Source: Candidatus Moraniibacteriota bacterium | GTDB lineage: Bacteria; Patescibacteriota; Minisyncoccia; Moranbacterales; UBA9337 | Length of the DNA stretch: 64,000 bases | NCBI GenBank assembly: GCA_028695135.1 | Contig: JAQVJM010000002.1 | Location: forward strand, 14,249 to 78,248 | Reading direction: 5' to 3' | Shown: positions 1,798 through 38,123 of the stretch, piece by piece | Layout of the letters: every line of letters begins with the position of its first letter | Numbering within the stretch: the stretch's first letter is position 1 | Position numbers and translations under genes: made by a program | Notes under the pieces: model-generated | Told to the model about the DNA's origin: nothing | Databases searched by the model: none | Seen by the model: the letters and a program-made list of their open reading frames with translations, nothing else

Positions 1798-2084
1798 TGA
1801 TTCTGCAGAAAAGAATGTCGATTTAAATGTCGACCAACCGGAATTTGCTCCTGAGCTGGAGATGATGATAGAATAATAAAACCGCTTCGTATAATAGGAA
1901 ATTTTTCTATCCAAAGATCATATCTTTTATGTGCTTCTTGACTTTTTATCTTTAAAAAGCTATTATTGTTTTTGTGGTTTTAAGCGACCAAGATAATTTT
2001 TTTTGTTTTATTCATCCTGTTAATAATTTTATTGGAATAAAATTCCGCTCGCCACGGCGAGTCGGATTTAAACAGGGTAAAAAT

Positions 2085-2393
2085 ATGTTAGCGATAATAA
2101 GAACTGGAGGAAAACAGTATAAAATCAAAGAAGAGGACAAGATCAAGATTGAAAAAATAGAGGGAAAAGAGGGAGATAAGGTTAAATTTCCCGAAGTTTT
2201 GTTTATAGGCGACGAAAAAAGCGCCAAAATAGGAACTCCTCTAGTAAAAGGCGCGAAAGTCGAAGGAAAGATAATCGCCCAGAAAAAAGACAAAAAAGTC
2301 TGGGGGATAAAGCACAAGGCCAAAAAAAGATATAAGATCAAATTCGGCCATAAACAGCCGATCACGGAAGTAGAAATAGTAAAGATCGGATAA
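2085..2393 (+). CDS. rplU: 50S ribosomal protein L21
   Basis: MLAIIRTGGKQYKIKEEDKIKIEKIEG...KKVWGIKHKAKKRYKIKFGHKQ matches the L21 family N-terminus and length; start moved to the internal ATG at 2085 after a GC-rich leader hairpin. Confidence 0.85.
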   Translation: MLAIIRTGGKQYKIKEEDKIKIEKIEGKEGDKVKFPEVLFIGDEKSAKIGTPLVKGAKVEGKIIAQKKDKKVWGIKHKAKKRYKIKFGHKQPITEVEIVKIG

Positions 2394-2408
2394 ATATAAT
2401 ATCAAAAG

Positions 2409-2440
2409 AAGCCGCCTCTATAAGGCGGCTTTTAAGTTTT
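2409..2440. terminator. Bidirectional rho-independent terminator between rplU (+) and recR (-)
   Basis: GCCGCCT-CTATA-AGGCGGC hairpin followed by TTTTAAGTTTT. Confidence 0.6.
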
Positions 2441-2454
2441 GATCCAATCGTGTA

Positions 2455-3042
2455 TCAGTTCAATTTTTCCCGATTCGTCAATGCCGAGCTCAGAGTCAGC
2501 TCGTCGGCATACTCGATATCTCCTCCGGTTGAAAGTCCGCGTCCGAGGCGGGTAATTTTTATTTTGAAATTTTGAAGCTTCCTTTTAAGATAAAGAGAAG
2601 TCATATCGCCTTCTGTTGTCGGATTGGTGGCGATTATTATTTCTTTGATTCCTTCTTTTTTAAGCCTCTCCAAAAGCTCCGGTATTTTTAGATCATTTTT
2701 TTCTTCTCCCGCTTCCATTGATCCGCCCAAGACGTGATACAATCCCTTGTAAATCCCTGTCCTCTCTATGGAAATTATATCAAGAGGATCTTCCACCACG
2801 CAGATCGCATCGTCTTCTCTTTGTTTGTTATTGCATATTTCGCAAAGATTCTCTTCCGATATGTTGAAACATCTTTCGCAGTAGCGAAGCTCTTTAAGCT
2901 TGGCCAAATTTTCCGAAAAATCCTTTATTTTTTCCTTGTTCTGTTTGAATAAAAATAAGACCAGCCTTTCGGCCATTTTGGGACCGATGGAGGGAAGTGA
3001 TGAAAAATTATCTATCAGTTTTTGAAATATCTTGGGATACAC
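2455..3042 (-). CDS. recR: Recombination protein RecR
   Basis: N-terminal HhH (SLPSIGPKMAERLVLFL), C4 zinc finger (CERCFNISEENLCEICNN) and Toprim motif (IIATNPTTEGD). Confidence 0.9.
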   Translation of the reverse strand: MYPKIFQKLIDNFSSLPSIGPKMAERLVLFLFKQNKEKIKDFSENLAKLKELRYCERCFNISEENLCEICNNKQREDDAICVVEDPLDIISIERTGIYKGLYHVLGGSMEAGEEKNDLKIPELLERLKKEGIKEIIIATNPTTEGDMTSLYLKRKLQNFKIKITRLGRGLSTGGDIEYADELTLSSALTNREKLN

Positions 3043-3123
3043 GTTAAAAATTCAAAGTGCAAAATTCAAAAATAAAAATTTATAATTTTTTTGAAAATGA
3101 CTTCTTGTTTTATTTTTTTTAAA

Positions 3124-4515
3124 TTATTTATTTTCAGTAGCCATATCTTCTTCCGTATGGGTTCTTTCCAGAGATTTAAATGTCGTGGATTTTTCCTCAA
3201 AATAAAGGCTGGCTTTTCCCAGAGGCCCGTTCCTGTGCTTGGCTATGATGACGTCCACGATGTTTCTGTTGGGAGTATCCGGTTTTTCGCGGTCTTCGCG
3301 GTAAAGCATCAAAACGACGTCGGCGTCTTGTTCGATCGAGCCCGACTCCCTGAGATCGGAAAGTTTCGGAATTTGCGGAGATCGTGATTCAACTTGTCGG
3401 GAGAGCTGGGAGAGGGCGAGAATCGGGATATTCAGTTCCCTGGCAAGTTGCTTAAGGGCGCGCGATATTTCGGAAATTTCCTGGACGCGGTTGTCTCCGG
3501 AGCTTTTTCTTCCTTCCATAAGTTGCAAATAGTCGATTATTATCAGTCCCAGCTTATGCTCTGCCTGAAGCCTCCTGGCCATGGTGCGCATTTCCATAAT
3601 ATTGGCGGAAGCGGCGTCATCGATGTAAATCGGCGCTTCGCTCAAAATACCCATTGCTTCATTCAGTTTCTCAAAATCATTTTCCGTTCCGCTGGATCGC
3701 AGTTTTCCGGTCCGAAGCCTCCAAAGATCAATTCCCGCCTGGGCGGCCAGCATCCTGTCGATAAGCTGATCGGACGACATTTCCAGAGAAAAAATTCCCA
3801 CGGGAACCTTGGTCTGGATTCCTATCTGTCTGGCGATGTCGAGAGCGAGAGTCGTTTTTCCGATTGAAGGCCTGGCGGCCAATATTATCAGATCGGACTT
3901 TTGCAGTCCGGCAAGGATATTGTCGATATCCGGAAATCCTGTAGGCACTCCGCGTATGCTGCTGTCGTCTTTGTGTAATTCATCTATCCTGTTAAAGGCG
4001 CTTTCCAAAATTGATTTGATGGGGACAAAATCCTGCTTTAAATATTTCTGAGAAACTTTGAATATCCCTTGTTCGGCTTCATCCAAAATTTTTTCGACAT
4101 CTTCATTTCCGGAATATCCCATTTCCAGAATATTATCGGCGGCGGTGATAAGCCGGCGAAGCATCCCTTTTTTCTGGACAACCTTAGCGTAATGGGAAAC
4201 ATGAGAAGCGGAAGGGACGGAGTTTACCAGGGAAGCCACGTAACTGGAGCCGCCGATTTCTTCGAGCTGGCTCTTTTCTTCCAGCTTGTTGGATATGCTG
4301 AGTACGTCGATCGGATCTCTTTCTTCATAGAGCTCAAGCATCGCCTCGAATATCTTATTGTGGGATTCCTTGTAAAAATCGCCTGGCTGCAAAAAATCAG
4401 CGACTTTTATAATCGCATCCTTGTCGAGCATAAGAGATCCCAAAACCGACTGCTCAGCTTCGATGTTGTGGGGAGGAACCCTCAATTCGTCTTCATTTTT
4501 ATTGCTTCTGGCCAT
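3124..4515 (-). CDS. dnaB: Replicative DNA helicase DnaB
   Basis: PPHNIEAEQSVLGSLMLD N-terminal motif, Walker A ARPSIGKTTLALDIA, GLIIIDYLQLM, RecA-like C-terminal domain, 463 aa. Confidence 0.9.
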   Translation of the reverse strand: MARSNKNEDELRVPPHNIEAEQSVLGSLMLDKDAIIKVADFLQPGDFYKESHNKIFEAMLELYEERDPIDVLSISNKLEEKSQLEEIGGSSYVASLVNSVPSASHVSHYAKVVQKKGMLRRLITAADNILEMGYSGNEDVEKILDEAEQGIFKVSQKYLKQDFVPIKSILESAFNRIDELHKDDSSIRGVPTGFPDIDNILAGLQKSDLIILAARPSIGKTTLALDIARQIGIQTKVPVGIFSLEMSSDQLIDRMLAAQAGIDLWRLRTGKLRSSGTENDFEKLNEAMGILSEAPIYIDDAASANIMEMRTMARRLQAEHKLGLIIIDYLQLMEGRKSSGDNRVQEISEISRALKQLARELNIPILALSQLSRQVESRSPQIPKLSDLRESGSIEQDADVVLMLYREDREKPDTPNRNIVDVIIAKHRNGPLGKASLYFEEKSTTFKSLERTHTEEDMATENK

Positions 4516-4728
4516 TTGCTTAAAGAAAAAGATAAAGGATATCGCGCGTATCCTTGTATGACAAAATTAAGTATATATTATATAAAAAAGCAAAGCAATG
4601 CTTGACAAAATATGTAAATATGTGCTAATCTATATCGATTGGAAAAATTAATTTTTTCCGAATAAGCGCTGATTTTAAATATGAATTTTCTATATTTTTA
4701 TCATTTTTAACTATAAAAAAGGCTAGCT

Positions 4729-5835
4729 TTGCAAAAACATTTGCCGCTTTTTTTAGTTTATTATTTTATGAAGAATAAATCCATCATTAAAAAAAATTCC
4801 GAAATTTCTCTTTTTGAAAATGCGGTGAAATCCGTTACCGGCGGAATAAACGAAAGAGCTAAAGCGATGATATCTGATCGTTTTGGTTTTTATGGAAAAA
4901 GAATCAAGACCTTGGGTCAAATAGGGCAGGATTACGGCATTACCAGGGAAAGAGTTAGACAGATAATCCAGGAGGCTACAAGCAAGGCCAAGAAGTCTTC
5001 CAAAAAGGATCCTTTTTTCAAAAAAGCGGAAGAAAAAATCAAATTTACAATAGAAAAAAAATATGGTATAATTAATAAAAGCGACCTCATAGATTCCTTT
5101 TTTAAAGGAGAAGATGGAGGTAATTTTTTGGATTTTATCTTATATTGTTCGGATAAATTCGATATGTTTGGAGATAAGGAAAATATGAAAGAATCCGTGG
5201 CGTTAGCCGGATTTAAAAGGGAAGAATGGGATAAGATAATTGGAGAGACTCGAAAAATCTTGGAGGAGAAAAGAAGAGTCTTGAGTTTCAAAGGAATCTT
5301 TAACGAATTCAGAAAATTGTATCCGGATTTCGAGAAGGAAAAACTCGCTTCCTATCTGACCGTTTCCAAGGAAATCAAGAAAGGAGTCTTCGGGAAATGG
5401 GGGATGGCTGACTGGAAGGAGATAAATCCCAAAGGGATGAGACAAAAGGCCTACCTGGTGATAAAGGAATCGAAAAAACCTTTGCATTTCAGAGAAGTCG
5501 CCCGAATGATAGATGAATATAAGCTGAACAAGAAAAAAACTCATCCTCAGACGGTGCACAACGAGCTTATCAAAGACGAAAATTTTGTCTTAGTCGGCAG
5601 AGGGACTTATGCTCTCAAAGAGTGGGGATATCAGAAAGGAACGGTCAAGGATGTCATAGAGGGAATATTGAAGGTCAGCAAAAAACCGGTTTCTCAAGAC
5701 GAAATTATAGAAAAAGTTTTATCGGTAAGAAATGTCAAAGAAGCTACAGTTATAATAAATCTGAATAATTTTTTCAAGAAAATGGACAAAAGGAAATATT
5801 TTTTGAAAAAAAATGAGGTCAAAGATCGCGTTTAA
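4729..5835 (+). CDS. DNA-binding protein with sigma-70 region-4-like HTH (N-terminal) and HARE-HTH-like winged helix (C-terminal)
   Basis: TLGQIGQDYGITRERVRQIIQEATSKAKK resembles sigma70 region 4; FREVARMIDEY...THPQTVHNELIKDENFVLVGRGTYALKEW resembles the HARE-HTH of RNAP delta/Mrr N-terminus; start codon uncertain (alternative ATG at about 4768). Confidence 0.55.
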   Translation: MQKHLPLFLVYYFMKNKSIIKKNSEISLFENAVKSVTGGINERAKAMISDRFGFYGKRIKTLGQIGQDYGITRERVRQIIQEATSKAKKSSKKDPFFKKAEEKIKFTIEKKYGIINKSDLIDSFFKGEDGGNFLDFILYCSDKFDMFGDKENMKESVALAGFKREEWDKIIGETRKILEEKRRVLSFKGIFNEFRKLYPDFEKEKLASYLTVSKEIKKGVFGKWGMADWKEINPKGMRQKAYLVIKESKKPLHFREVARMIDEYKLNKKKTHPQTVHNELIKDENFVLVGRGTYALKEWGYQKGTVKDVIEGILKVSKKPVSQDEIIEKVLSVRNVKEATVIINLNNFFKKMDKRKYFLKKNEVKDRV

Positions 5836-5879: not shown

Positions 5880-7154
5880 ATGGAGATAATAATCGAAAGT
5901 TTTTCTGCGCTATTTTCAGAAGAAATGCGACAGGCCGTGGGAGCGAGCTGGTTCATAGTTCTTCCCGTAGCCCTCTATTTCTTGTTCAAAATATTATGGA
6001 TGGATTTCGTCCAGGATAACTTTTGGTCAAATATAGAATGGGATCTTATCGAAATAGTGCCTCCGAATGATATAGAGGCGACTCCTCAGCCGATGGAACT
6101 TATTTATTCCGGAATGCTCGGATCGATGAAGGGAATAAATGCCATAGAAGAATTTGTCAACGGAGAAATGGCGATGTATTACAGTCTTGAGCTGGTGAGT
6201 GACGAGGGCGGGGTTCATTTTTATATAAGAACGCCTAAAAATTTTACTCCTTTGATTGAGTCCAATTTCCATTCCCAATATCCCCAGGCTGAAATCAAAA
6301 TCGTTCCTGATTATGTAAATAACGTTCCAAAATTGGTTCCTAATAAAGAGTGGGATCTCTGGGGAACTGATTTCAAATTGGACAAACCGGATCCCTATCC
6401 GATAAAAAGCTACAGATGGTTTGAAGAAGACATAACCGGAAAAGCTCTTGACCCGTTGGCTTCCATTGTTGAAAGTATGGGGAAAATAGGTCCTGGCCAA
6501 AAATTTTGGCTTCAATTCATCATTACCCCGAAAGACGCCAGCCAATATGATACGGGCAAAGAATTGGCCAACGAGTTGGCCGGAAGGGCGATAGGTAAAA
6601 AAAGAGGATTTTTGGAGGGTGTGTTGGGAGATATCGTTGATGTGGCGATAGGGGCGTTAAAAACATTTTTCGGAGCTCCTCCCGAAGAATCCGCAACCGA
6701 AAAAGGCGAAGAAAATGTTCCCATAGAATTCAGGCTTACTCCCGGAGAAAGAGAAGTTTTAAAAATGGTCGAGGAGGGAATAGGCAAAAGCGCTTTCAAT
6801 GTGAAAATGAGAATGATTTATCTGGGAAGGAGAGAGGCTTTCAATAAAGTCGTCGTAGGTTCAGTGGCGGGAGGCATAAAGCAATTTTCCGATATAAATA
6901 CCAACGGATTTGCCATGGACAATGATACCAAAACATTCGCGCTCCACCTCTTCGTGGAGCAAAGGATGAGATACCGCCAAAGGACGATATTTAGGAGATA
7001 TGTCAAAAGAGATCGTACCGGAAAAACTTTTCATTTGAATACCGAAGAACTGGCTACCATTTTTCATCTTCCTAATATGTCTGTTATCACTCCTTCTCTG
7101 CGCAAGATTGAGACTAAGACCGGAAGTGCTCCGGCTAATCTGCCCATAGGATAA
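5880..7154 (+). CDS. Membrane-anchored hypothetical protein, probable partner of the downstream coupling-type ATPase
   Basis: N-terminal TM (WFIVLPVALYFLFKILWM) then a 380-aa soluble domain; 10-nt gap to the next gene suggests translational coupling. Confidence 0.5.
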   Translation: MEIIIESFSALFSEEMRQAVGASWFIVLPVALYFLFKILWMDFVQDNFWSNIEWDLIEIVPPNDIEATPQPMELIYSGMLGSMKGINAIEEFVNGEMAMYYSLELVSDEGGVHFYIRTPKNFTPLIESNFHSQYPQAEIKIVPDYVNNVPKLVPNKEWDLWGTDFKLDKPDPYPIKSYRWFEEDITGKALDPLASIVESMGKIGPGQKFWLQFIITPKDASQYDTGKELANELAGRAIGKKRGFLEGVLGDIVDVAIGALKTFFGAPPEESATEKGEENVPIEFRLTPGEREVLKMVEEGIGKSAFNVKMRMIYLGRREAFNKVVVGSVAGGIKQFSDINTNGFAMDNDTKTFALHLFVEQRMRYRQRTIFRRYVKRDRTGKTFHLNTEELATIFHLPNMSVITPSLRKIETKTGSAPANLPIG

Positions 7155-7163
7155 ATATAAATT

Positions 7164-9053
7164 ATGCAACAAGATATAACTTTTTTCGCCAAAACAAATT
7201 TCAGAAACCAAAACGTGAAATTCGGCATCAAAACCGAAGATCGGCAACGCCATATTTATGTGATCGGAAAAACCGGAATGGGCAAAACCACCCTTCTGGA
7301 GAATATTGTCATGCAGGATATCGCTAACGGATATGGAGTGGCTTATATCGATCCGCACGGAGATACGGCTGAAAAGCTCATAAAAGCCATACCTGCCAAC
7401 AGGATCAATGATGTGGTTTATTTCAACCCGGCGGATACCGAATATCCGGTCGCTTTTAATATTTTGGAAGCGGTCGATGAAGATAAAAAATATCTTGTCG
7501 CTTCCGGAATGATGGGAGTCTTTAAAAAAATTTGGCCCGATGTTTGGAGCGCCAGGATGGAGTATATACTCAATAACGCTATTTTGGCTCTTTTGGATTA
7601 TCCCGGTTCGACCATGATGGGAGTAAATAGGATGATGTCCGACAAAAAATATCGCCAGCGGGTTTATGAAAAGATAAAAGATCCGATCGTAAAAAGTTTT
7701 TGGATAGATGAATTCGAAACATGGGACGATCGTTTCAGGAAAGAGGCCGTGGCGGCGATACAAAATAAAGTGGGACAATTTCTATCTTCTTTTCTCATAA
7801 GGAATATAGTGGGACAGACCAAATCTACCATAAACATGCGTGATATAATGGAGGAGAACAAGATTTTGATAGTGAATCTTTCCAAGGGAAGAATAGGAGA
7901 GGACGCTATGCGCCTTCTAGGGGGAATGATAGTGACAAAATTGCAATTAGCCGCTATGGAAAGAGTCGATATTCCCGAAGAAAAGAGAAGCAATTTCTAT
8001 CTGACGGTGGATGAATTTCAAAATTTTGTTACGGAATCTTTTGCTAATATTTTATCCGAAGCCAGGAAATACCGCTTAAACTTGCTGGTGGCGCATCAAT
8101 ATATCAATCAGCTGGTTTTTGACGGAAATACGGTAGTGAGGGACGCCATCTTTGGAAATGTGGGAACGATAATCGCTTTTAGAGTGGGGGCGGAGGACGC
8201 CGAATTTTTGGAAAAAGAATTCGAACCTATTTTCATGATGAACGATATTGTCAATCTTCCGAAATACAATATATATTTGAAGCTGATGATTGATGGAATC
8301 GCGGGAAACGCTTTTTCGGCTACCGCTCTTCCTCCGATCGATATCAAGGGCACTGAGGAGAACGCCGAGAAGGTCATAAGGATTTCCAGGGAAAGGTATG
8401 CCAGAATCCGCAAAGATATAGAAGATAAGATTTCTCGATGGACGGGAATGATAGCTAAGGAAGATTTTAAGAGCGTATCCGAGGAAGTCGCAATAAAAAA
8501 GATCCGAGGAACGAATTTAAGAGAAGGCGATTCTAGCTCCAATTACAAGGTTAAGGAGAAACCGCCTTCTGTTTCCGCAGAGGAAATAAGAGAAAAAAAA
8601 GAATCGATTCAAAAAAAAGATAGGGAACAGGGGAAGAAGCATCTTTTTCAAGCCGAATGCGCCACTTGCGGGATAGAGATAGGTGTTCCTTTTAAGCCTG
8701 ACGGAGAAAGGCCGACTTTTTGCAAAGACTGCCTGAAGGATTATCAAAGGGCGATAGCGCGCCTTCAGAATGAAGAGAAAAGATCCAAAGAAAAGCGCGT
8801 TGACGAGGAAAAAAAATTTAAAATTATTGAGAAAAAGGAAGAAGTGAAAAAAGAAAATATCCCGGATAGAATAAAGTCCGGAGTGAGAACGGAGCAGAAG
8901 ATTTATGTCTCCAAAGAAAAGCCTATGAGTCTTTCTCAGACAAGATATGTAGCGCCTAAAAAAATTAAAAATTTGAAGCAGGACATGGGAAAAATAAAGG
9001 AGCTTATAAACAGGAATAGAAAAGCTCAAGGGGATATTGACAAAAAAAATTAA
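7164..9053 (+). CDS. FtsK/HerA-superfamily P-loop ATPase of the VirD4/TraG/TrwB type IV coupling-protein type, lacking N-terminal TM segments, with Lys/Glu-rich tail and CxxC...CxxC zinc ribbon
   Basis: Walker A YVIGKTGMGKTT followed by VAYIDPHGD (cf. TrwB GATGTGKS...IVDPNGD); Walker B FYLTVDEFQNF; ARKYRLNLLVAHQYINQL...IFGNVGTIIAFRVGAEDAEFL matches the T4CP/FtsK C-terminal motor motifs; C-terminal CATCGIEIGVPFKPDGERPTFCKDC. Confidence 0.7.
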   Translation: MQQDITFFAKTNFRNQNVKFGIKTEDRQRHIYVIGKTGMGKTTLLENIVMQDIANGYGVAYIDPHGDTAEKLIKAIPANRINDVVYFNPADTEYPVAFNILEAVDEDKKYLVASGMMGVFKKIWPDVWSARMEYILNNAILALLDYPGSTMMGVNRMMSDKKYRQRVYEKIKDPIVKSFWIDEFETWDDRFRKEAVAAIQNKVGQFLSSFLIRNIVGQTKSTINMRDIMEENKILIVNLSKGRIGEDAMRLLGGMIVTKLQLAAMERVDIPEEKRSNFYLTVDEFQNFVTESFANILSEARKYRLNLLVAHQYINQLVFDGNTVVRDAIFGNVGTIIAFRVGAEDAEFLEKEFEPIFMMNDIVNLPKYNIYLKLMIDGIAGNAFSATALPPIDIKGTEENAEKVIRISRERYARIRKDIEDKISRWTGMIAKEDFKSVSEEVAIKKIRGTNLREGDSSSNYKVKEKPPSVSAEEIREKKESIQKKDREQGKKHLFQAECATCGIEIGVPFKPDGERPTFCKDCLKDYQRAIARLQNEEKRSKEKRVDEEKKFKIIEKKEEVKKENIPDRIKSGVRTEQKIYVSKEKPMSLSQTRYVAPKKIKNLKQDMGKIKELINRNRKAQGDIDKKN

Positions 9054-9098: not shown

Positions 9099-9380
9099 AT
9101 GGGAATACAACCTTTAAAAGACAATGTTCTTATTTCTCCGATAAAAGAATCGGAAAAAACAAAAACAGAAGCGGGCATATATCTTCCGGAATCGGCCGAA
9201 GGAATGAATGAAAGGCCTCAAATCGGCAAGGTTGTGGAAGTGGGGGAAAGCAATAAAATTCAAGTAAAAAAAGGGCAAAAAGTAATTTATAATAAATATT
9301 CCGGAACGGAAATAAAATTGGATGGAAAAGATTTTCTGATAGTCAAGAGCGATGATATTCTGGCAGTGATTAAAAAATAG
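9099..9380 (+). CDS. groES: Co-chaperonin GroES (10 kDa chaperonin)
   Basis: IQPLKDNVLISP...EKTKTEAGIYLPESA...GKVVEVGE...KKGQKVIYNKYSGTEIK..DGKDFLIVKSDDILAVI, 93 aa. Confidence 0.9.
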   Translation: MGIQPLKDNVLISPIKESEKTKTEAGIYLPESAEGMNERPQIGKVVEVGESNKIQVKKGQKVIYNKYSGTEIKLDGKDFLIVKSDDILAVIKK

Positions 9381-9390: not shown

Positions 9391-9420
9391 AAAACCGCCA
9401 AAAATGTCGGCGGTTTTTTC
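9391..9420. terminator. Bidirectional rho-independent terminator between groES and the convergent rhodanese gene
   Basis: AAAAACCGCC-aaaaatgtc-GGCGGTTTTTT. Confidence 0.6.
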
Positions 9421-10234
9421 ATTTTTCAATCGGGAATCCTTTTTCTTGCCAGGCCCTAAGTCCGCCTTCAATCGTATAGGTGGCCAGAAATCCTAGATCG
9501 TAGAGCTTGACTCCCGATTGGAAATCAAGCAACTCGGAATCCCCATATACTATTATTTCTTCCATCAAGGGGATATCCTCCTTTTTGCTTTCCAAATCTT
9601 TAAGGGGTATGTTCATAGCTTTGGGTATATGTCCCTGCGAAAAAAGATTTTCCGAACGAGTGTCTATTATTGTTACGGGATATCCGTTGTCTATGGCCAG
9701 CTTTAGCTGTTCCGGAAGTATGTTTTCTATCTTTGCCCTGTCCAAAACGGATTCCGGATCGCCTATGCCCACTGTATTGTTGGATTTTGTTTTCCAAGCG
9801 TAAATTCCTCCCGATAGGGCTAAAACATTCTTGAATCCGGAATCTTTGAAGAATTTGACTGCGCCAGCTTCGGCGTTTTTATCCTCGAAATCATATCCGA
9901 CTATGACTATAAGCTCTTCTTTGTTCAATTTTATTACTTCATCCTTTATTTTTTCTGGCGTTATGTTTACCGAGTCTTCTATGTGCTCCTTTTCATAACT
10001 TACGGCATCCCGAATATCTATTATTTTCAACTTTTCTTTTTTTATTATTTTTTCTCCAAGCTCCTCGGATGTAATATATGCATATTCATAAACTTCTTGT
10101 GTTTGCGGCGGAGCTTCTGTTTTTCCTTTATTAAATTTAAAAACTGGACGCATGAAAGTTATTGTTGCGACTATGAGGATAAGAAGAAAACCTAAGAGGA
10201 AAACTCTATTTTCTTTTTTAATTTTTTCGGACAT
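9419..10234 (-). CDS. Membrane-anchored tandem rhodanese-domain protein; both domains lack the catalytic cysteine
   Basis: N-terminal TM then two rhodanese-like modules (IIDIRDAVSYEKEHIEDSVNI...GGIYAWK and TIIDTRSENLFSQGHIPKAMNIP...GGLRAWQ); the active-site loop positions read VGYDFED and VYGDSEL instead of CxxGxR. Confidence 0.75.
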   Translation of the reverse strand: MSEKIKKENRVFLLGFLLILIVATITFMRPVFKFNKGKTEAPPQTQEVYEYAYITSEELGEKIIKKEKLKIIDIRDAVSYEKEHIEDSVNITPEKIKDEVIKLNKEELIVIVGYDFEDKNAEAGAVKFFKDSGFKNVLALSGGIYAWKTKSNNTVGIGDPESVLDRAKIENILPEQLKLAIDNGYPVTIIDTRSENLFSQGHIPKAMNIPLKDLESKKEDIPLMEEIIVYGDSELLDFQSGVKLYDLGFLATYTIEGGLRAWQEKGFPIEK

Positions 10235-11189: not shown

Positions 11190-11327
11190 AATTTCACAAT
11201 CCGAATCTACGGATATAATTCAAATCTACAAATTTTATTCGAATTCCTCTAAATATCGCATCGGATTTATCCGGGATTTAAATTATTGCGATCGGAACGC
11301 TCAAATGTCATTCGTAGATTCGGATTA

Positions 11328-11756
11328 TTATTTATTTATAAAAAGTTTTCCGTTAAGATGGTCTATTTCATGCTGGAGCGCTCTGGCCAGCAGAGCCTCC
11401 GCTTTTATCTTACACTTTTCTCCTTTTTCATTCAAATACCTTACTGTAACTCCGGAAAATCTTTTTATCGGTAGGAATTTCCCGGGGAAACTGAGACATC
11501 CTTCTTCAGAAATATCACATTCTTTCGATTCGGACGTTATTTTGGGATTTATGAAAACATATGATTTTTTATCAATTTCGATAACGCAAAGACGGATTGA
11601 TTTTCCAATTTGAGGAGCCGCCAATCCTATGCCTTTATTTTCTCTCATAGTTTGGATCATGTCGATTATCAGTTTTTGAATCTCGGGATCAAGGGGATTT
11701 TTTATTTTTTCCGATTTTTTTTCCAGTATCGGATCGGGATAGGCTATTATTTTCAT
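11328..11756 (-). CDS. def: Peptide deformylase
   Basis: GIGLAAPQIG, EGCLSFPG, HEIDHLNG metal-binding motifs; 142 aa. Confidence 0.9.
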   Translation of the reverse strand: MKIIAYPDPILEKKSEKIKNPLDPEIQKLIIDMIQTMRENKGIGLAAPQIGKSIRLCVIEIDKKSYVFINPKITSESKECDISEEGCLSFPGKFLPIKRFSGVTVRYLNEKGEKCKIKAEALLARALQHEIDHLNGKLFINK

Positions 11757-11816
11757 TGAATTTCTATAAGTTGCAAATGAATACGAATTTACTAATATGC
11801 AAAATATCTAATCTGC

Positions 11817-12176
11817 TTAGAGTTTCTTATAAATGTTCTTCTCTTCCTTTCCGTGATCAGCCTTTATTTCAAAAAAGTTCCCTTCAGGAAGTCCTTGAAT
11901 CATAACATTTTTAGAATCATTTTTCAATATTTTTATATTTTCCATTTTTATCTTTTTGCCATCGACAATCAGCGACCAGGAGAAATCTTTATCATCGGAA
12001 TAGTTTTCAATAACGAAGCTCATGGAATCATTTTTTGGATTTTCAAAATATAAAAACCATCCGTTTTTAATCCGATGCTGGCGATTTTCCGCGATGCTTA
12101 GGAATAAAAAGCTCGTCAGAACGATCGCCAACGTTGAAACTATTATTATTTTATGGTTTTTCATAATATTCTTCAA
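11817..12176 (-). CDS. Exported hypothetical protein with N-terminal TM/signal
   Basis: N-terminal hydrophobic stretch IIIVSTLAIVLTSFLFLSIA; 4-nt overlap with the upstream GT-C-like gene. Confidence 0.4.
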   Translation of the reverse strand: MKNIMKNHKIIIVSTLAIVLTSFLFLSIAENRQHRIKNGWFLYFENPKNDSMSFVIENYSDDKDFSWSLIVDGKKIKMENIKILKNDSKNVMIQGLPEGNFFEIKADHGKEEKNIYKKL

Positions 12177-14212
12177 TGCCTATAAAATATCTCAATATGC
12201 TTCCCGGAATAAATTTTCCAGAAGTCATCGTTTTTTTCGAATTGGATGCTGTCAAATTCAGGATTTATCACTACAAATCGAGTGCCGGTTCCCGCATAGC
12301 ATCTTTGAGCTTTTTCTGAGGAAGGAGATTCTATCATCCAGAGCGTACACATTTCGCGAGGCTTAGTGGGATCTTCGTATCTCTTGAAAAATCCTCTAGA
12401 CAAAGGATAGCTATAATCTCTCATGAAAGAAAGCTTCATCCAGGCATCTGCTTTTATGTAATTGTGATCCTTTATCGTCATAATCTCGCTGTCAATCCTT
12501 TCGGTCAGATAACCGGAAGCATGAAAGGTTTCCAACGCCGATTGATTGTCAATTCTTCCCGATAAAGATTGGGAATTGTCGTAGTGTCCGGAAGAAAAAA
12601 CAGTAAGCGTCATCAGGAAAAAAAACAGGAGGATGATCTTGGAGGACACTGAAAAATATCCGCTCCCTTTTAAATTTTTTATGAAATAAGCCAGCCAGAC
12701 CAGGGCGAAAGAAGCGGATATGACAAACGGAAAACTTGTATAATTGGCGACTCTTCCCGAAGGTATGTTTATGTAAAGCCAATGAGGCTTGAGGGTCATA
12801 ACCGATAAGGCGATTGTCCAGCCGATGATAAAAGCGGGAGCTAAAATTTTTTCAAAAGTATTCTTTTTTTTGAAATTTTTGTGCGAAAGCGCAATTAGAG
12901 ACAAAAGAAAAATTCCTATCAATCCCAGCGCCAGGCGTGGTTCTCCGACTGCGTATTTGAATTGAGCGGGAGTGAGTCCCGTCCGGGTTGATTTGGAAGG
13001 GGCGCCGACAGCTGTGGAAGTGGCGTCAAAGTTGAGGTAGGAAGGCGTATGGATAAATAAAACAAATATGGATATTGCTGCCAGAAATACTATGTTTTGA
13101 GCGGAGAAAGCGATTTTAAAATATTTTTTCATCAAGTCTGAAAAATCGGAAAAGCGGCTTTTGTTTTCCTTGATTCTTAAAAATGCGATATCGAGCAGAG
13201 ACGCGAATGTGAAAAACAATATTATAAAGATGAAGATAAAGATAAAAATCAGCGAGCTGAGATGATGAAAATAGAACATTCCGCCGCTTGCAAACAGAGC
13301 CAGAGTCATCAGGTTTTTGTTTTCTTCCTTCAACGCTCTGAAAAAAAGATAAAGAGAAAGGGGGATAAGCAGATTGCCGATTATGTTTCCCACAACTCCT
13401 CCGCTTACGAATTTGGCTTGCGGAGAAGATATGGCATAAATCGGACCCATAAGAAGAAGAGCGGCTATGGATATATTCAGCGGGTTTTTAATCAGGCTTT
13501 TGGGAGTGATAAAATTTTTTCTGGAAAAAATTCTAAGGGTCAGGATAAAAATAGCCAGAATGCCGATTATATCTATGAGAAAGAGGACCAGGGTGGGAAA
13601 GTAAGAAATGAAATCAGCTCCGCTCAGGAGATTTATGGCGGAAAAAACCAGATGTTCTCCAATTATAAAATCGGCGATATCGCTTTTTTCCAAAAAATAA
13701 TTTCCCTCGTCTTCAATTATTTCCAGTTTCTCATAATCGGGGAGATTTCCGGTTTCGGAAACAAGTTTAGCCCAGTACATGTGGTGGCCGAGGTCGGTGG
13801 AAGTAGGGAAGATGGCGTCTTTTAGATAAGCGGTTTTTATGAATACGGTAAGAAAAATTATCAGAATTATCAATATAGATTGCTTTTTCGAAAAATCCGC
13901 AAATATCGATTCCTGCCTATCTACTTTATTTTTTTTGTTCTTATTTTTATAAAATAAATAACAAGTTGTCAGAAAAAATCCGATAATTGCCGAGATAGAA
14001 AGTGTCGTTATCGGAATTCCCGTTTTTCCCAGAATTATTATCAAAAAATTTACGGCAATAAGGCTTAATCCGAAAGAAATAGTGAAATTTTCCAAAGGCA
14101 GGAAAATTTTCCTCACATCTTTGCCAAAAATCGCCAGAAGTAAAAAATATCCCGGAAGAAATAGGATGATAATCAAGGATAAATAAAATAGAATTTGTTC
14201 GATAATAAACAT
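12173..14212 (-). CDS. Large polytopic membrane protein, putative GT-C-fold glycosyltransferase (ArnT/PMT-like architecture: ~11-13 TM helices plus C-terminal extracytoplasmic domain)
   Basis: Many TM helices in the first ~520 aa, soluble C-terminal domain; operon context with the GtrB/DPM1-like GT2 and a GT4; no sharp family motif recognised. Confidence 0.5.
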   Translation of the reverse strand: MFIIEQILFYLSLIIILFLPGYFLLLAIFGKDVRKIFLPLENFTISFGLSLIAVNFLIIILGKTGIPITTLSISAIIGFFLTTCYLFYKNKNKKNKVDRQESIFADFSKKQSILIILIIFLTVFIKTAYLKDAIFPTSTDLGHHMYWAKLVSETGNLPDYEKLEIIEDEGNYFLEKSDIADFIIGEHLVFSAINLLSGADFISYFPTLVLFLIDIIGILAIFILTLRIFSRKNFITPKSLIKNPLNISIAALLLMGPIYAISSPQAKFVSGGVVGNIIGNLLIPLSLYLFFRALKEENKNLMTLALFASGGMFYFHHLSSLIFIFIFIFIILFFTFASLLDIAFLRIKENKSRFSDFSDLMKKYFKIAFSAQNIVFLAAISIFVLFIHTPSYLNFDATSTAVGAPSKSTRTGLTPAQFKYAVGEPRLALGLIGIFLLSLIALSHKNFKKKNTFEKILAPAFIIGWTIALSVMTLKPHWLYINIPSGRVANYTSFPFVISASFALVWLAYFIKNLKGSGYFSVSSKIILLFFFLMTLTVFSSGHYDNSQSLSGRIDNQSALETFHASGYLTERIDSEIMTIKDHNYIKADAWMKLSFMRDYSYPLSRGFFKRYEDPTKPREMCTLWMIESPSSEKAQRCYAGTGTRFVVINPEFDSIQFEKNDDFWKIYSGKHIEIFYRH

Positions 14213-17389: not shown

Positions 17390-17416
17390 AAAAACCCGCC
17401 AGAGCGGGATTTTATG
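17390..17416. terminator. Hairpin terminator between convergent genes (stronger T-run for the minus-strand gene)
   Basis: CCCGC-CAGA-GCGGG flanked by A-run and T-run. Confidence 0.5.
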
Positions 17417-18551
17417 ATTTTGGATTTTTCTTTGCCCTTAGGCTTGCGTCGAATCTGATTCCCCCGGGATTCAATGCTTCGATTGCGCTCATTATTTCAT
17501 GGTTTTCCAAGCCTCTTCCTATCCTGTTTTCCATTTTCTTTATTTTTTTCAAGTAATCCATTATTAATTTTTTTCTTATCTCATCATCTTCTTTGGTTTT
17601 AAATCTGTCTATTTCCAAAGTTAAATGTCTGGCCAATTTTCTTTTGTCAGTTTTAAAATGCATCGCTTCTATCCCGTCGCTTATTTCTTTCAAAAAATTC
17701 AGATGCCTTTCCGGTCGCTCGTGATAATCCTTGGCCGGTTTCGTTTTTATAAAATTGGGCTTTTTCTTTATAAGAGTAGGCCCTTCCTTATAAGCCGTTA
17801 TTATCTTTTTCAGAGCCTTTTCCCTGTCTCCCGCTTCGTATTCTTCTTTTCCTATGCCGTATATCTTATATAACATAGCGACGTAGATCGCCCCAAAAGC
17901 TCGTCCGTGTCGAGGGCTCTCTTTTATTATCTTTTTTATTTTTTCCAGCTTTGCGGTCGACTGGAGATTGCTGTGGGGATTTATCTCTCTGTAATCGACC
18001 AGCCGGTGGAGCTTCTCGATGATATCTCTTGTGGCCGCTTCTCGCAGTTGCATCACTCCGAAGGCCCCTTTGTTTTCCAACGGTTCAGGGTTTCTCACAT
18101 TTTTTATGCTTCCTCCGGATTCTCTTAGCTCTATGGCATCGACGAGATGATCGTTTACCAGATCTTCCGGCAGAAAGCCTTTTTTATCATAAATCTCGTG
18201 TGATATCTCTATCATTTTATCTGCCAATTCCCGGGCGTTCAATTTTTCCAGATCGATCGTTTCATATTTTTCATTTTTGATTTCCGAAGCATCATATTTT
18301 TTTTCTGTCAATCCTTCCTTATTTTCTGCATAATTCTTTCTGCGGAAAAATTTTCCTATAGCTTCTATGATGCTGGTCACTTTTCTCGGTTCCTGAGTTA
18401 TTGCTGTAGCCGATAAAGCGGTGACAGCAAATCCAAATAAAAAATCCCGCCTGCTGAGCATCGTTTTTTCGAAATTTCCTGCCATAGGTTTTTCAGAGCT
18501 GTTTTCCTCAGGCTTATTTTTTTTCGGCGATACATAAGATTCTATTTTCAT
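17412..18551 (-). CDS. Lytic-transglycosylase-like (SLT-domain) protein with twin-arginine-like signal peptide
   Basis: LSRRDFLFGFAVTALSATA resembles a Tat motif; ELRESGGS...GAFGVMQL matches the SLT catalytic E-S...GAxGxMQ signature. Confidence 0.55.
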   Translation of the reverse strand: MKIESYVSPKKNKPEENSSEKPMAGNFEKTMLSRRDFLFGFAVTALSATAITQEPRKVTSIIEAIGKFFRRKNYAENKEGLTEKKYDASEIKNEKYETIDLEKLNARELADKMIEISHEIYDKKGFLPEDLVNDHLVDAIELRESGGSIKNVRNPEPLENKGAFGVMQLREAATRDIIEKLHRLVDYREINPHSNLQSTAKLEKIKKIIKESPRHGRAFGAIYVAMLYKIYGIGKEEYEAGDREKALKKIITAYKEGPTLIKKKPNFIKTKPAKDYHERPERHLNFLKEISDGIEAMHFKTDKRKLARHLTLEIDRFKTKEDDEIRKKLIMDYLKKIKKMENRIGRGLENHEIMSAIEALNPGGIRFDASLRAKKNPKS

Positions 18552-23903: not shown

Positions 23904-25790
23904 CTATTTTTTTATTTCAAAAATTTCTCCCTTTACATGAATATTTTCTTTTTTAGGAAATGAAAAATCTTTTGGCGGATCGATAAGCGCATTGGTGACG
24001 AAGGAATAGGAATTGACGGATATAAGCTTGTCTCCTAGATAGCTTTCCTTGTAGTATTTTACATTGCTTTTGGGAGTTATCAAATATATTTTCTCATATT
24101 TTTGAGTATTGAGACGCTTCAAGTCATCGGGATTGAAAAAATAAACGGCATTTTTTTCAAAAAGGAAGTTCATAGGAGCGGCGATCATTTCTTGGCTGTT
24201 TCCCCCGGATTTTTGATCTACGAGAATCAGATCGTTCTCGGTGAAATTCTGGCTTATATTCCTGGTATCCTCCATGAGGTTCATTCCGGGGACATAAGAG
24301 AAAAAATAAATGGCGGCCGGGAGGTTAAGAATAATTATAAAAAGCAGGATAATTTTATAATAAAGCGCTTGTGCGGGTTTTTTGAAAAAAGCGCAGAGCA
24401 AAAGAGGGGAATATAATATCGCAGCCGGCAGGACGGCGAAGACGAATCTTCTCAGCATCCATGGATGGTCGGGGGTTATCTGTGGATTGAGTATATATAT
24501 GAAAGAGGGGAGAGCGATAAAAAAGGGAACAAGTTTTACGTAGTCTCTTTTTTTGAAAAAATATATTACGGAGACGAATCCCAAAAGAAGGGGCGCCAAT
24601 ATTCCGTAAAGCGCAAAGATTTTAAAAAGGTTGAGAGAGGAGATGGCGTAATCGCCGGTAATCTTTGCGGCGTTTCCGGAAAAATCTTTTGCCAAAGCTT
24701 TAATGATAGCTTTGTAAAAATAAACATCCGCGACCAAATTCCAAGCGAAGAAAAAGACGAGCAATGCAATAGCCGGTAAAATGATCTTTAGGAAATTTAT
24801 TCTAAAATATCTAGCAGTGTTTTTGTGGAGAAGAAGGATAAAAATCATTGCTACAAAGAAGGCCAAACCTTCAATCCGAGTAAAGACCAACAATCCGAAA
24901 CTCATAAATAAAACAAGCAACGTTATCGCATTTTTGTAAAAGCTTTCTACTTTTGATCCGGTCAGATAAATCATCTGAAGAATTCCTATCCAAAGGAGGG
25001 CCAGTGCCATATTTTCCGTGAGAGTGAATTTGGCAAACCAGAAAAAGGAAAAGGATGTGGCGACAATAGACAAGGTTGCAATTGATGCAAAAAGAGCCTC
25101 TTTTTTCCCGAGGGGTTTTGCGAGACTGAAAGAAATCAAAAATATGGATAGGAGAAAAATATAAAGGAGAATGGCGTTGGCGATTATGAATCCGGCCAGA
25201 CCCAAAAAGGAATAAAAAAATGAAAGCCATGATATGTAGACTAAGGGAAATTGGGTAGATAGATTTCCATCCGGTGTGTAAAAAAATCCGGGAAAATTCA
25301 GCGCTTTTCCGGAAGCATCGGCGTGGCAGTAAAATCCATCCAGTTTTTCTTTCAAGGAGCGGTTATCTTTTTCAGTCAGGCCTTTTTCTTTGATACAGCC
25401 GGCCATTTTGTCCCGGGGCGCGGAATTTATCTCAAAAAAATCTCGGGATACCGGATTGGAAAATTCCAGCTGATTGTTCTGTGAGAGCCTGATGGCGGCT
25501 TCGCTTATGGATCCCTGGTCGCGTCCGGAAAAGACAGTCGGATTTACATAGACAGAAAAAGCGGTGACAATTATAAATAAGCTTAAGTTGACGATTACGA
25601 AAGTCCGGGATGATTTTAGGAGAGGTTTCAAGAAAAACCTTATTCCCAGAGCTACTACAAGCGCTATAAACAAGACAAGGATCCACCAGTAAAAAGCGCC
25701 CAATAGGGTGATAATAAAAGCCAGCCATCCGAGAGCCAGCCAGAAAAGTAAAAATATATTAAAAGATTCAAAGTCATTTTTGTTTAGCAT
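23904..25790 (-). CDS. Large polytopic membrane protein (~14 TM), possible GT-C/ArnT-like glycosyltransferase or related
   Basis: Multiple TM helices across 500 aa then a C-terminal soluble domain; the architecture resembles 12173-14212. Confidence 0.45.
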   Translation of the reverse strand: MLNKNDFESFNIFLLFWLALGWLAFIITLLGAFYWWILVLFIALVVALGIRFFLKPLLKSSRTFVIVNLSLFIIVTAFSVYVNPTVFSGRDQGSISEAAIRLSQNNQLEFSNPVSRDFFEINSAPRDKMAGCIKEKGLTEKDNRSLKEKLDGFYCHADASGKALNFPGFFYTPDGNLSTQFPLVYISWLSFFYSFLGLAGFIIANAILLYIFLLSIFLISFSLAKPLGKKEALFASIATLSIVATSFSFFWFAKFTLTENMALALLWIGILQMIYLTGSKVESFYKNAITLLVLFMSFGLLVFTRIEGLAFFVAMIFILLLHKNTARYFRINFLKIILPAIALLVFFFAWNLVADVYFYKAIIKALAKDFSGNAAKITGDYAISSLNLFKIFALYGILAPLLLGFVSVIYFFKKRDYVKLVPFFIALPSFIYILNPQITPDHPWMLRRFVFAVLPAAILYSPLLLCAFFKKPAQALYYKIILLFIIILNLPAAIYFFSYVPGMNLMEDTRNISQNFTENDLILVDQKSGGNSQEMIAAPMNFLFEKNAVYFFNPDDLKRLNTQKYEKIYLITPKSNVKYYKESYLGDKLISVNSYSFVTNALIDPPKDFSFPKKENIHVKGEIFEIKK

Positions 25791-26677: not shown

Positions 26678-27661
26678 ATGAAAAAATATTACAAACCTAA
26701 GGTTGTTTCTCCTTCTTTTGAGATAGTTCCCGATGATATCGGCTTGGCCGTAAGGATAGAGTTTACCGGCCGGGTTTGCTACAAGAGCGAGGACAGGATA
26801 AGTGCCGACTCTTCAGCCGGATTTTGCCGGGGAATGGTAAATCACAAACACAATTCCGTTCTCGAAATGGGCGTGCGCACCTGTGAGGTGAAAGCCAGGA
26901 CTAAGTCGCATATGCGCGAGATAATCATGGCTATGCCGAAGTATCTTTTTATCGATGATTTTCCTTTTGAAAAAAGGACTCTGATAACCGGAAGCGTGCG
27001 CGCTTTCCGGGAAATGCTGATGAGACTTCCTGGAAATGAGATAATAAGGACGATTGCTTTTGACATGAATAAAAATCATCCTTATTTTTTTGAGGATATA
27101 GCATCTTTGCTTCCGGTGAAAAGATCAAGAAAGATTTCTTGTCGGCAAGTTTCCCTAGAGGAAATCGATCAGATGGAACCGGAAATCCAGGCTCGCCATC
27201 GACATTTGGCGGTCAAGTTTATCGTCAGTCGCGCGGTGACTCATGAAATCGTCCGGCATCGCCCTTGCTCTTTTCTGCAAGAGAGCCAGCGATATTGTTG
27301 CTATAGCGATGGAAAATTCGGTTCTCGCATTACTTTCATCAAACCTGTATTTTTCAAAGAGGACAGCGAGGATTATGAGATATGGGGGAAAGAATGTTTA
27401 TCAGCCGAGGCCGTCTATATGAAGTTGATAAAAAACAATTCCCCCCAGGCGGCTCGCACGGTTCTTCCAAATTCCTGTAAGACGGAAATATTTGTCTATG
27501 CGAATCTGGCAGAGTGGCATCATATTCTTCATATGCGCACAAGCAAGGCTGCCGAGCCTTCAATGCGGGAAGTTATGATCCCCCTGCAAAAAGAACTTAT
27601 GAAAAGATTTCCCGAACAGAATTTTGGAGAGCCTCTCCGGATGCCGGAGGGCTATGTGTAG
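26678..27661 (+). CDS. thyX: Flavin-dependent thymidylate synthase ThyX (with N-terminal extension)
   Basis: Signature EIVRHRPCSFLQESQRY (RHR-X7-S...QRY) plus LPNSCKTEIFVYANLAEWHHILHMRTS C-terminal ThyX region. Confidence 0.85.
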   Translation: MKKYYKPKVVSPSFEIVPDDIGLAVRIEFTGRVCYKSEDRISADSSAGFCRGMVNHKHNSVLEMGVRTCEVKARTKSHMREIIMAMPKYLFIDDFPFEKRTLITGSVRAFREMLMRLPGNEIIRTIAFDMNKNHPYFFEDIASLLPVKRSRKISCRQVSLEEIDQMEPEIQARHRHLAVKFIVSRAVTHEIVRHRPCSFLQESQRYCCYSDGKFGSRITFIKPVFFKEDSEDYEIWGKECLSAEAVYMKLIKNNSPQAARTVLPNSCKTEIFVYANLAEWHHILHMRTSKAAEPSMREVMIPLQKELMKRFPEQNFGEPLRMPEGYV

Positions 27662-27776
27662 AAAAAAAACAATGAGGAATTTATCCGCTTATGCTAGAAG
27701 GGCATAAGCGGCCTTTTATTTTTACAAGCTGATGTGGTAAAATAAAATACGGTGTCTTTTAAATTTTAATGAGATA

Positions 27777-35880: not shown

Positions 35881-36012
35881 AAAATCCGAAATTTAAAATC
35901 CGAAATCCTAAACAATTTTAAAGTCCAAATAATTTAAATTTAAAAACTTTTTAAATTTAGAATTTGGAAAATTTTAATTTATTTAGAAATTGATGCTTTG
36001 AATTTCGAATTT
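35881..36012 (+). repeat. 23S intervening sequence IVS1 (AT-rich hairpin element family) in the helix 9/10 hairpin loop
   Basis: Interrupts the loop of stem CCGTACATAGCACAG/CCGTGTTGTGTGCGG; begins AAAATCCGAAATTTAAAATCCGAAATCCTAAACAAT, ends ...GAATTTCGAATTTC; internally self-complementary. Confidence 0.7.
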
Positions 36013-36382: not shown

Positions 36383-36419
<37 letters not shown>

Positions 36420-36492
36420 CATCCCGATAAGGGAGATGAAATAGTATCTGAAACCATATGTTAACAAGGAGTCAGAGCCGTACGTAGTACGG

Positions 36493-37938: not shown

Positions 37939-38123
37939 GTGCTTTTGGTGCTATGCATTGGCCGCAGCTAAAGATTCCAAGCGACTGTTTATCAAAAACA
38001 CAGGTCTCTGCAAACCCGTAAGGGGATGTATAGGGGCTGACGCCTGACCAGTGCTGGAACGTTAACGGGAGCGGTGCAAGCCAATCCCCGAAGCGCCAGT
38101 GAACGTCGGCGATAACTATAATC

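Follow-up and report, generated by a model that had tools for sequence, protein, structure and literature searches.

In a 64,000-nucleotide stretch of the genome of a Candidatus Moraniibacteriota bacterium (contig JAQVJM010000002.1, positions 14,249 to 78,248 of the forward strand; the whole stretch is called the window in this work) two adjacent genes at positions 5880-9053 encode a membrane protein of the DUF8128 type and a soluble ATPase of the type IV coupling protein (T4CP) superfamily. Together with the gene directly upstream they form a module to which we give about an even chance of being a chromosomal, vertically inherited, split derivative of the T4CP of monoderm-type conjugative elements, acting as a membrane-tethered, relaxase-independent nucleic-acid translocase. 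An earlier note, made from the letters of this DNA, had placed both open reading frames correctly on the + strand. The features of the module are the following:

4729-5835, + strand: gene with Sigma70_r4 and HARE-HTH domains, 368 amino acids as the longest open reading frame, the true start likely being the ATG at 4768
5880-7154, + strand: DUF8128 protein, 424 amino acids, with an N-terminal anchor and a soluble part with a predicted fold like that of the VirB4 N-terminal domain
5931-6014, + strand: predicted transmembrane helix of the DUF8128 protein, its sole one (about residues 18-45; Kyte-Doolittle), lying inside the model helix 2-51
7128-7148, + strand: APANLPI, invariant C-terminal tail motif of the DUF8128 protein (alignment of 21 sequences)
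7164-8450, + strand: T4CP-type ATPase core, residues 1-429, without transmembrane helix (Pfam, NCBIfam, phrog_5156, hhalign)
7266-7289, + strand: Walker A motif GKTGMGKT of the ATPase
about 7998-8015, + strand: Walker B motif YLTVDE of the ATPase
8451-9053, + strand: Lys/Glu-rich C-terminal tail of the ATPase, in the same open reading frame as the core
8640-8741 (residues 493-526), + strand: treble-clef CxxC-x17-CxxC zinc finger in the ATPase tail (PF23477, TIGR04272)

Fused forms of the pair in phages and, probably, a plasmid

The two proteins correspond to the two halves of a larger one. The phrog_5156 profile (824 positions) is colinear with both of them, the DUF8128 protein matching positions 73-358 (E 5e-6) and the ATPase positions 396-815 (E 4e-59). 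Bacillus phage G gp156 (825 amino acids) carries both halves in the same order by tblastn and hhalign; in the latter the DUF8128 protein aligns to its N-terminal half with E 4e-9 and the ATPase to its C-terminal half with E 6e-31. Since the pair is fused in phage G gp156 and in phrog_5156, the earlier description of it as a split module is right, and judged by this colinearity the DUF8128 protein and the ATPase would make up one functional unit, the split form of a fused protein. Related large proteins were found by tblastn in SPO1-like and CP-51-like Bacillus phages.

The fused relatives have the following neighbours. In SPO1 (locus L083, 3747-7284) the fused DUF8128-T4CP gene gp27.4 is followed by the gene of a Replic_Relax protein, a family (PF13814) which represents the MOBC relaxase class (PMC5357655). 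In phage G (locus L082, 2196-6338) the gene before gp156 encodes a VirB4-like ATPase (VirB4/TraG-P-loop). These lytic Bacillus phages carry, in other words, a conjugation-like gene set. An Embleya (Streptomycetaceae) plasmid shows the order PrgI/VirB3, XF1762, VirB4-like ATPase, 812 amino acid T4CP, Replic_Relax, NlpC/P60, and the C-terminal half of its T4CP (WP_331738717) matches the ATPase profile with an hhalign E of 2e-43; this plasmid protein is probably a fused DUF8128-T4CP as well. A Pontibacillus plasmid carries a stand-alone DUF8128 gene followed by ATPase fragments, near a conjugal pilin-like gene. The closest relative of the motor outside the candidate phyla radiation (CPR), at 40% identity, is on a Sulfitobacter plasmid, where it stands alone beside transposases and is functionally uninformative.

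Phage G gp156, SPO1 gp27.4/phrog_5156 and Embleya WP_331738717 share with the pair two homologous, colinear halves, the N-terminal match being significant by hhalign for phage G and not for Embleya. They differ from it in being single chains of 812-906 amino acids encoded beside VirB4-like and/or MOBC relaxase genes, with motors 23-32% identical to the one described here. From the VirB4-like and Replic_Relax neighbours it appears that in monoderm mobile elements the fused protein sits where the coupling protein of a conjugation-type gene set would.

The ATPase

The 629 amino acid ATPase (7164-9053, + strand) carries the motifs VIGKTGMGKTT...VAYIDPHGD, YLTVDEF and AHQYINQL...FGNVGTIIAFRVGAEDAEF, in which the earlier note had recognised a T4CP. 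A Candidatus Moranbacteria MAG has an identical protein at NCBI. Profile searches agree with that assignment, as TrwB_AAD_bind (36.9 bits, residues 23-342 against profile positions 10-311 of 387), DUF87 (HerA central domain, 28.8 bits) and TraG-D_C (25.9 bits) all exceed their Pfam cut-offs (20.5, 23.2 and 22, respectively), and TrwB and DotL/IcmO are the only solved structures matched by the sequence, around Walker A. Its best profiles are not those of a non-translocase family. The FtsK_SpoIIIE motor, which the earlier note had listed among the profiles to search, and the FtsK 4TM and gamma models (PF01580, PF13491, PF09397) gave no match at E up to 0.1, HerA_C reached 12.8 against a cut-off of 22, and the VirB4 profile TIGR00929 (VirB4_CagE) 18.6 bits against a cut-off of 643, at the P-loop only. 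As the NCBIfam equivalog and subfamily models (SXT_TraD, CD1115, TraD) all stay below cut-off, the ATPase is a member of the T4CP superfamily outside any named subfamily. Alignment by hhalign of its profile with single T4CP and VirB4 sequences of pGO1 was weak and non-discriminating, with 43 columns aligned to TrsE around Walker A.

In agreement with the earlier note the ATPase is free of hydrophobic segments (its highest 19-residue Kyte-Doolittle mean is 1.14) and its tail contains a zinc ribbon. The latter is matched by zf_Tbcl_2 (PF23477; residues 493-525, 41.3 bits, Pfam cut-off 27) and by TIGR04272 (CxxC-x17-CxxC; 45.6, NCBIfam cut-off 36), and its four cysteines (C499, C502, C520, C523) hardly vary among 20 homologues. 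Residues 96-216, between the two Walker motifs, are predicted to be helical in a low-confidence AlphaFold2 (AF2) model (pLDDT 49).

The protein thus described resembles TrwB of R388 and VirD4 (PDB 1E9R, 1GL6) in being a P-loop motor with TrwB_AAD_bind and TraG-D_C matches, in the Walker A context G.TG.GK(S/T)...DP.GD, and possibly also in a largely helical insert, which is predicted for it. In distinction to TrwB the chain is without the N-terminal two-helix transmembrane domain, sequence similarity is significant just around Walker A, there is no nearby relaxase or type IV secretion system (T4SS), and a zinc-finger tail and the DUF8128 partner are additional. With FtsK/SpoIIIE and HerA it shares the broad additional-strand catalytic glutamate (ASCE) division of ring translocases, including the DUF87 match; it differs from them in having neither an FtsK_SpoIIIE match nor a gamma domain, and no NurA partner is encoded next to it, the neighbours being the HARE-HTH gene, DUF8128 and groES.

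The DUF8128 partner

The stop codon of the upstream gene ends at 7154 and the ATG of the ATPase is at 7164, leaving a spacer of 9 nt and not the 10 nt counted earlier. The 424 amino acid product found no match in NCBIfam, PADLOC or the Pfam set used, a set without the PF26449 (DUF8128) model. Its DUF8128 membership is inferred from close homologues: a precomputed PF26449 match is recorded for 120 of the 120 relatives listed (47-77% identical over the full length), and the upstream gene of the related locus L001 is annotated DUF8128. An exhaustive profile search returned 2,903 representatives of 50%-identity clusters, 928 of them with E<=1e-30; the top 150 are without exception stand-alone, with 224-566 amino acids, and all relatives with source names come from the CPR (Moran-, Kerfeld-, Falkow-, Komeilibacteria, Parcubacteria).

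Only one stretch of the protein, at about residues 18-45, has a Kyte-Doolittle 19-residue mean of at least 1.6. Because of this single hydrophobic helix the protein would be single-pass anchored with about 370 soluble residues, and not polytopic. The AF2 model (pLDDT 71, pTM 0.68) consists of a long N-terminal helix (2-51), two alpha/beta regions separated by a charged, poorly predicted insert, and a disordered tail. In a Foldseek search of the PDB the top 14 matches were all R388 TrwK/VirB4, with E from 3e-5 to 3.5e-3 and a probability of 1.0 for the best 13 and 0.95 for the 14th, and nothing else was found with E < 0.01. Among predicted viral structures (BFVD) the model matches phage G gp156 (9e-16) and the VirB4-like phage G gp155 (5e-7), other top matches being large ATPases of phages JL and Slash. 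The DUF8128 profile has no match among PDB sequences. With moderate confidence the model thus points to a fold like the VirB4 N-terminal domain. The earlier proposal of a separate membrane protein as anchor agrees with the one predicted transmembrane helix; it falls short in that the protein is more than an anchor and has a large predicted domain of this fold. Taken with the ATPase, the combined architecture would be a VirB4-like N-terminal domain plus a T4CP-type motor.

Such an arrangement has partial parallels. TrsD of pGO1 and of Patescibacterial T4SSs is likewise a separate protein encoded beside its ATPase; it adjoins virB4 and is remotely related to the N-terminal part of VirB4 (PMC12102498). 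The pair differs from VirB4, TrsD and TrsE in that there is no similarity at the sequence level and that the motor matches T4CP profiles along its length and the VirB4 profile at the P-loop only; the likeness to VirB4/TrwK lies in the modelled fold of DUF8128. T4CPs without a transmembrane domain (TraJ-TraI, pIP501; class iii of Llosa and Alkorta, as relayed in PMC7431656) also combine a soluble motor with a membrane link from a second protein. These belong to active conjugative plasmids, in distinction to the present pair, in which the partner has 424 amino acids and the VirB4-like predicted fold.

At the C-terminus of the DUF8128 protein, residues A417, P418, N420, L421 and P422 are invariant in 21 sequences. 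DUF8128 proteins generally end in an invariant (A/P)PxNLP(I/F/V) tail, which keeps its place at the very end of the chain even in variants that have linkers of about 100 amino acids. Longer members have one copy of the motif after the domain, a variable charged linker, in some cases with a D(Y/F)DNDYFExRFA motif, and a second copy at the extreme C-terminus. The tail motif may be a candidate docking peptide.

A three-gene module conserved in Patescibacteria

Related loci were sampled with one genome per GTDB species; a DUF8128 relative was present in 422 species, of which the best 80 were taken. The 84 related loci analysed span two CPR classes and include three ABY1 loci. Wherever the contig of a related locus is long enough to tell, the two genes lie side by side, which shows the gene pair to be conserved together. 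The protein of the gene upstream of the pair has a Sigma70_r4 domain (34.0 bits, residues 40-86) and a HARE-HTH domain (52.8 bits, residues 239-299) by Pfam, and by tblastn this gene immediately precedes DUF8128 in 80 of the 81 species-level loci. The same search shows Sigma70_r4/HARE-HTH, DUF8128, ATPase core and zinc-finger tail in this order throughout, apart from gaps at contig ends. The neighbours listed in the earlier note, dnaB, recR and the Sigma70_r4/HARE-HTH gene, are all present in the window; of these dnaB and recR are not conserved neighbours of the module and the Sigma70_r4/HARE-HTH gene is, which makes it effectively the third module member. Promoter and terminator scans were at background level, with no obvious terminator between the three genes.

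The three ABY1 loci (Kerfeld-, Komeilibacteria) carry the same trio with a DUF8128 protein only about 30-36% identical to that of the window. In the ABY1 loci (L087, L088, L089, about 2000-4750) secD-secF directly precede the trio, and three distant genomes (L001, L087, L088, about 11300-12700) have an mnmA-like tRNA methyltransferase gene a little further downstream, after a few other genes. Many related genome records are titled 'uncultured Bdellovibrionales bacterium' (e.g. L002, L017, L018); in gene content and nearest relatives they are like Moranbacteria, and these titles are probably mislabelled.

The zinc-finger tail is within the open reading frame of the ATPase core in 68 of 70 loci. 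In the other two (L001, 9395-11207; L076, 6137-8451) the tail is in a separate open reading frame overlapping the core, which may reflect a genuine second split, a frameshift or a fault in the assembly.

From locus to locus, sequence identity varies in concert among the three proteins (Spearman 0.46-0.63), which fits co-inheritance of the trio. The ATPase core is the best preserved part, with a median identity of 69% (range 62-91%, 83 loci), compared to 49% for DUF8128 and 44% for the HARE-HTH protein; the N-terminus of the ATPase (FFAKTNFRN...FGIK) is invariant. A groES gene follows the ATPase in just 9 of the 84 loci; in these nine the ATPase is 86-91% identical and GroES 59-74%, and the ATPase core is thus better conserved than GroES.

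Published survey and transposon data

Orphan T4CP homologues in Patescibacteria are already published. In a survey of 3,035 genomes, 2,918 genomes (96%) were found to have VirD4-type T4CP homologues and 2,417 to have VirB4; of the 5,713 T4CP homologues only 148 were near virB4. In the words of its authors, an exaptation of t4cp 'cannot be ruled out' (PMC12102498, 2025). Literature searches for PF26449, DUF8128 and HARE-HTH in CPR gave nothing, and no account of the split, of the VirB4-like partner or of the sigma/HARE linkage seems to exist in the literature searched.

Phenotypic information comes from transposon sequencing (Tn-seq) of the Saccharibacterium Southlakia epibionticum (PMC10633639; normalised reads at T0, T1 and T2 from its supplementary tables). 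SEML1_0294, a 349 amino acid protein with Sigma70_r4 and HARE-HTH, is essential at all three time points (reads 31, 4, 14). As in the window, a T4CP-type ATPase gene follows directly: SEML1_0293 encodes 921 amino acids with TrwB_AAD_bind at residues 402-719. It differs from the pair in being probably unsplit, the motor starting at about residue 360-400. Judged by its length, gene order and domain positions, SEML1_0293 most likely represents an unsplit orthologue of the pair; on this view the module is split in Paceibacteria and ABY1 and fused in Saccharimonadia. Both genes are flagged as core, Patescibacteria-enriched families (PMC10633639). SEML1_0293 is non-essential (5,817, 2,940, 1,372), with mutants dropping about 4-fold from T0 to T2. 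The competence channel gene comEC is non-essential and flat (12,586, 11,147, 12,301), and dprA for DNA processing is non-essential and not falling (3,729, 5,337, 6,061). The earlier note had considered DNA uptake or segregation as the role of the module; the Tn-seq result on this probable orthologue would favour neither.

Two other ATPases of S. epibionticum were considered. SEML1_0096 is a canonical FtsK, essential at T1 and T2 (33, 3, 4), and as this organism has a complete, essential FtsK, replacement of FtsK by the module in Saccharibacteria was ruled out. SEML1_0142 is a second T4CP-like protein of 1,019 amino acids and is essential (556, 172, 141; PMC10633639). It has an FtsK-like P-loop domain at residues 381-800, again after a long N-terminal extension, and its gene is beside gyrB and gyrA, after two small genes (SEML1_0141, essential; SEML1_0140, growth-defect).

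Genomic setting

A Pfam scan of the open reading frames of the 64-kb window detected no VirB4, relaxase or other T4SS gene, and a low-sensitivity tblastn search found no VirB4, TrsD, PrgI or MOBC relaxase in the window or within 6 kb of the pair in the 84 loci, in keeping with the orphan status that the earlier note had given to the pair. No integrase or other mad genes were found around the module. The window has the look of a piece of Patescibacterial chromosome. Its GC content is about 0.37-0.44 with no local anomaly, and its housekeeping genes include dnaB, recR, groES, fmt, def, gatB, cysS, eno, pgk, ftsW, mraY and the 23S-5S rRNA genes.

Some other features of the window are recorded here. 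No groEL comes after groES (9099-9380); the gene that does (9419-10234) lies on the other strand and seems rhodanese-like from its translation. The 23S rRNA gene (35735-39685) is about 3.7 kb compared to a 2.9-kb model and has a group I intron match at 38961-39158; the 5S rRNA is at 39574-39685, no 16S is directly upstream of the 23S, and the rRNA genes seem unlinked. Two adjacent open reading frames at 26678-29141 (327 and 454 amino acids) both have a ThyX (Thy1) domain. Large open reading frames of 379-780 amino acids without a Pfam match at E<=1e-4 are at 23904-25790 (-), 54798-57140 (-), 58547-60226 (+) and 17412-18551 (-).

Proposed function and alternatives

In the proposed scheme the ancestral form is one protein of about 800-900 amino acids with a DUF8128 N-terminal domain and a TrwB/VirD4-type motor. 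Phages of Bacillus, and probably an actinomycete plasmid, would still carry this form, with VirB4-like and/or MOBC relaxase genes alongside. In the Moranbacterium the halves would have become separate, with DUF8128 providing one transmembrane helix and the VirB4-like domain. By analogy with the N-terminal domain of R388 VirB4 and with the T4CPs without a transmembrane domain (TraJ/TraI), DUF8128 would tether the soluble ATPase to the membrane and probably aid its assembly. The ATPase, as other members of its family, would form a hexameric ring and move nucleic acid at the expense of ATP. Its Lys/Glu-rich zinc-finger tail and the presumably co-transcribed Sigma70_r4/HARE-HTH protein may select the substrate, the three proteins interacting physically. 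The module would work without a relaxase, as a conserved, conditionally dispensable part in DNA handling.

A number of observations weigh against this scheme. The N-terminal half of the Embleya T4CP is colinear with DUF8128, but its match is non-significant (E 0.009, probability 4%). DUF8128 shows no similarity to pGO1 TrsD or TrsE (VirB4) by hhalign, and its TrwK/VirB4 matches, obtained with a model of moderate quality, have low TM-scores of about 0.33. For the ATPase, the AF2 model (pTM 0.34, besides the low pLDDT) was too poor for a fold search. The strong conservation of the ATPase is unexpected for a gene dispensable in culture. In the contexts known for them, both sigma region 4 and the delta-subunit-type HARE-HTH are associated with RNA polymerase, and such domains would suit a part in transcription no less than DNA targeting. 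Finally, T4CPs are able to carry proteins too, so that the substrate need not be DNA.

A more specific form of the split-derivative reading is that the trio is a new kind of Patescibacteria-wide machine, independent of T4SS and relaxase, which was domesticated once from a MOBC-type conjugative element, and in which the essential sigma-like DNA- or RNA-polymerase-binding protein recruits the membrane-tethered ring ATPase to nucleic acid. We put this forward tentatively, as possible but short of probable.

The module could instead be a genuine coupling protein of the Patescibacterial T4SS (VirB4, TrsD, PrgI, VirB6, pilins), encoded elsewhere on the chromosome and supplying its channel in trans with DNA or effector proteins. 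The fused homologues in conjugative clusters adjoin VirB4-like and PrgI genes, and by Foldseek DUF8128 resembles the domain of R388 VirB4 that docks onto VirB3 and VirB8 (7O3J-series structures). CPR T4SS clusters are without a T4CP of their own, and T4CP genes are often far from virB4 in other systems (PMC12102498). Against this, T4CP homologues occur in more Patescibacterial genomes than VirB4 (2,918 against 2,417), and the conserved synteny is with the sigma4/HARE gene (and secDF in ABY1), never with T4SS genes. The T4SS genes of S. epibionticum are essential (PMC10633639) and SEML1_0293 is not; the essential SEML1_0142 may be the real partner of this T4SS. We regard this explanation as unlikely, and doubt that the Patescibacterial T4SS has its essential motor in this module.

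It is rather improbable that the ATPase is a cytoplasmic-side motor of natural transformation, pulling DNA through ComEC in place of the seemingly absent ComFA ATPase. T4SS-family ATPases import DNA in other systems, namely the Ced system and ComB4, and the ATPase has a weak NCBIfam match to CedD. Patescibacteria rely on scavenged nucleotides and have natural competence; for S. epibionticum ComFC, ComEC and DprA are listed and ComFA (K02240) is not (PMC10633639), and like comEC the gene is dispensable for growth. However, no competence gene is among the conserved neighbours, and comEC and dprA mutants keep their reads where those of SEML1_0293 fall; because of this different trend SEML1_0293 would have a role beyond ComEC-dependent uptake.

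A role without any transport, in which a remodelling ATPase acts together with the Sigma70_r4/HARE-HTH protein on RNA polymerase or on membrane-side chromosomal DNA, we hold to be improbable. The sole universally conserved neighbour does join sigma region 4 with the HARE-HTH of RNA polymerase delta and is essential in S. epibionticum, and the fitness trend of SEML1_0293 mutants resembles that of recF and recA, not that of comEC; as a true FtsK exists in this organism, any chromosomal role must differ from that of FtsK. Against it, we know of no T4CP-type ATPase that works on RNA polymerase, a translocation machine is what the membrane anchor and the conjugative ancestry suggest, and SEML1_0294 and SEML1_0293 differ in essentiality.

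That the genes are left over from an integrated phage or conjugative element, or belong to an anti-phage defence system, is very improbable: homologues do occur in phages and plasmids and the best PADLOC match is mad8 of MADS (66.6 bits, E 7e-19), but synteny extends over two CPR classes in the loci analysed and a third inferred from the published gene table, the ATPase core is conserved beyond GroES, the family is near-universal, and no integrase, relaxase or other mad gene and no unusual composition accompanies it. MADS was rejected because the two neighbouring proteins scanned match no PADLOC mad model and the surroundings are housekeeping; synteny, conservation and neighbourhood were the grounds for rejecting a defence-island or integrated-element origin.

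Significance

Patescibacteria account for much of bacterial diversity and have tiny genomes, in which few genes are kept without reason; the survey cited above left the T4CP homologues of 96% of their genomes unexplained. To this the present work adds that the widespread homologue has a DUF8128 part, separate or fused, with a predicted fold like the VirB4 N-terminal domain, that a sigma4/HARE-HTH gene, essential in the only CPR bacterium for which there are Tn-seq data, has a fixed place in the gene order, and that the motor is conserved above GroES. The vague notion of an exapted T4CP is thereby turned into a defined three-gene module, testable in the genetically tractable Saccharibacteria. 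If the trio is a Patescibacteria-wide machine of the kind put forward above, it could be a DNA import or processing pump standing in for the missing ComFA, or a chromosome-handling device particular to ultra-small epibionts. A clade of coupling proteins with a VirB4-like N-terminal domain would also bear on how the VirB4 and VirD4 families diverged.

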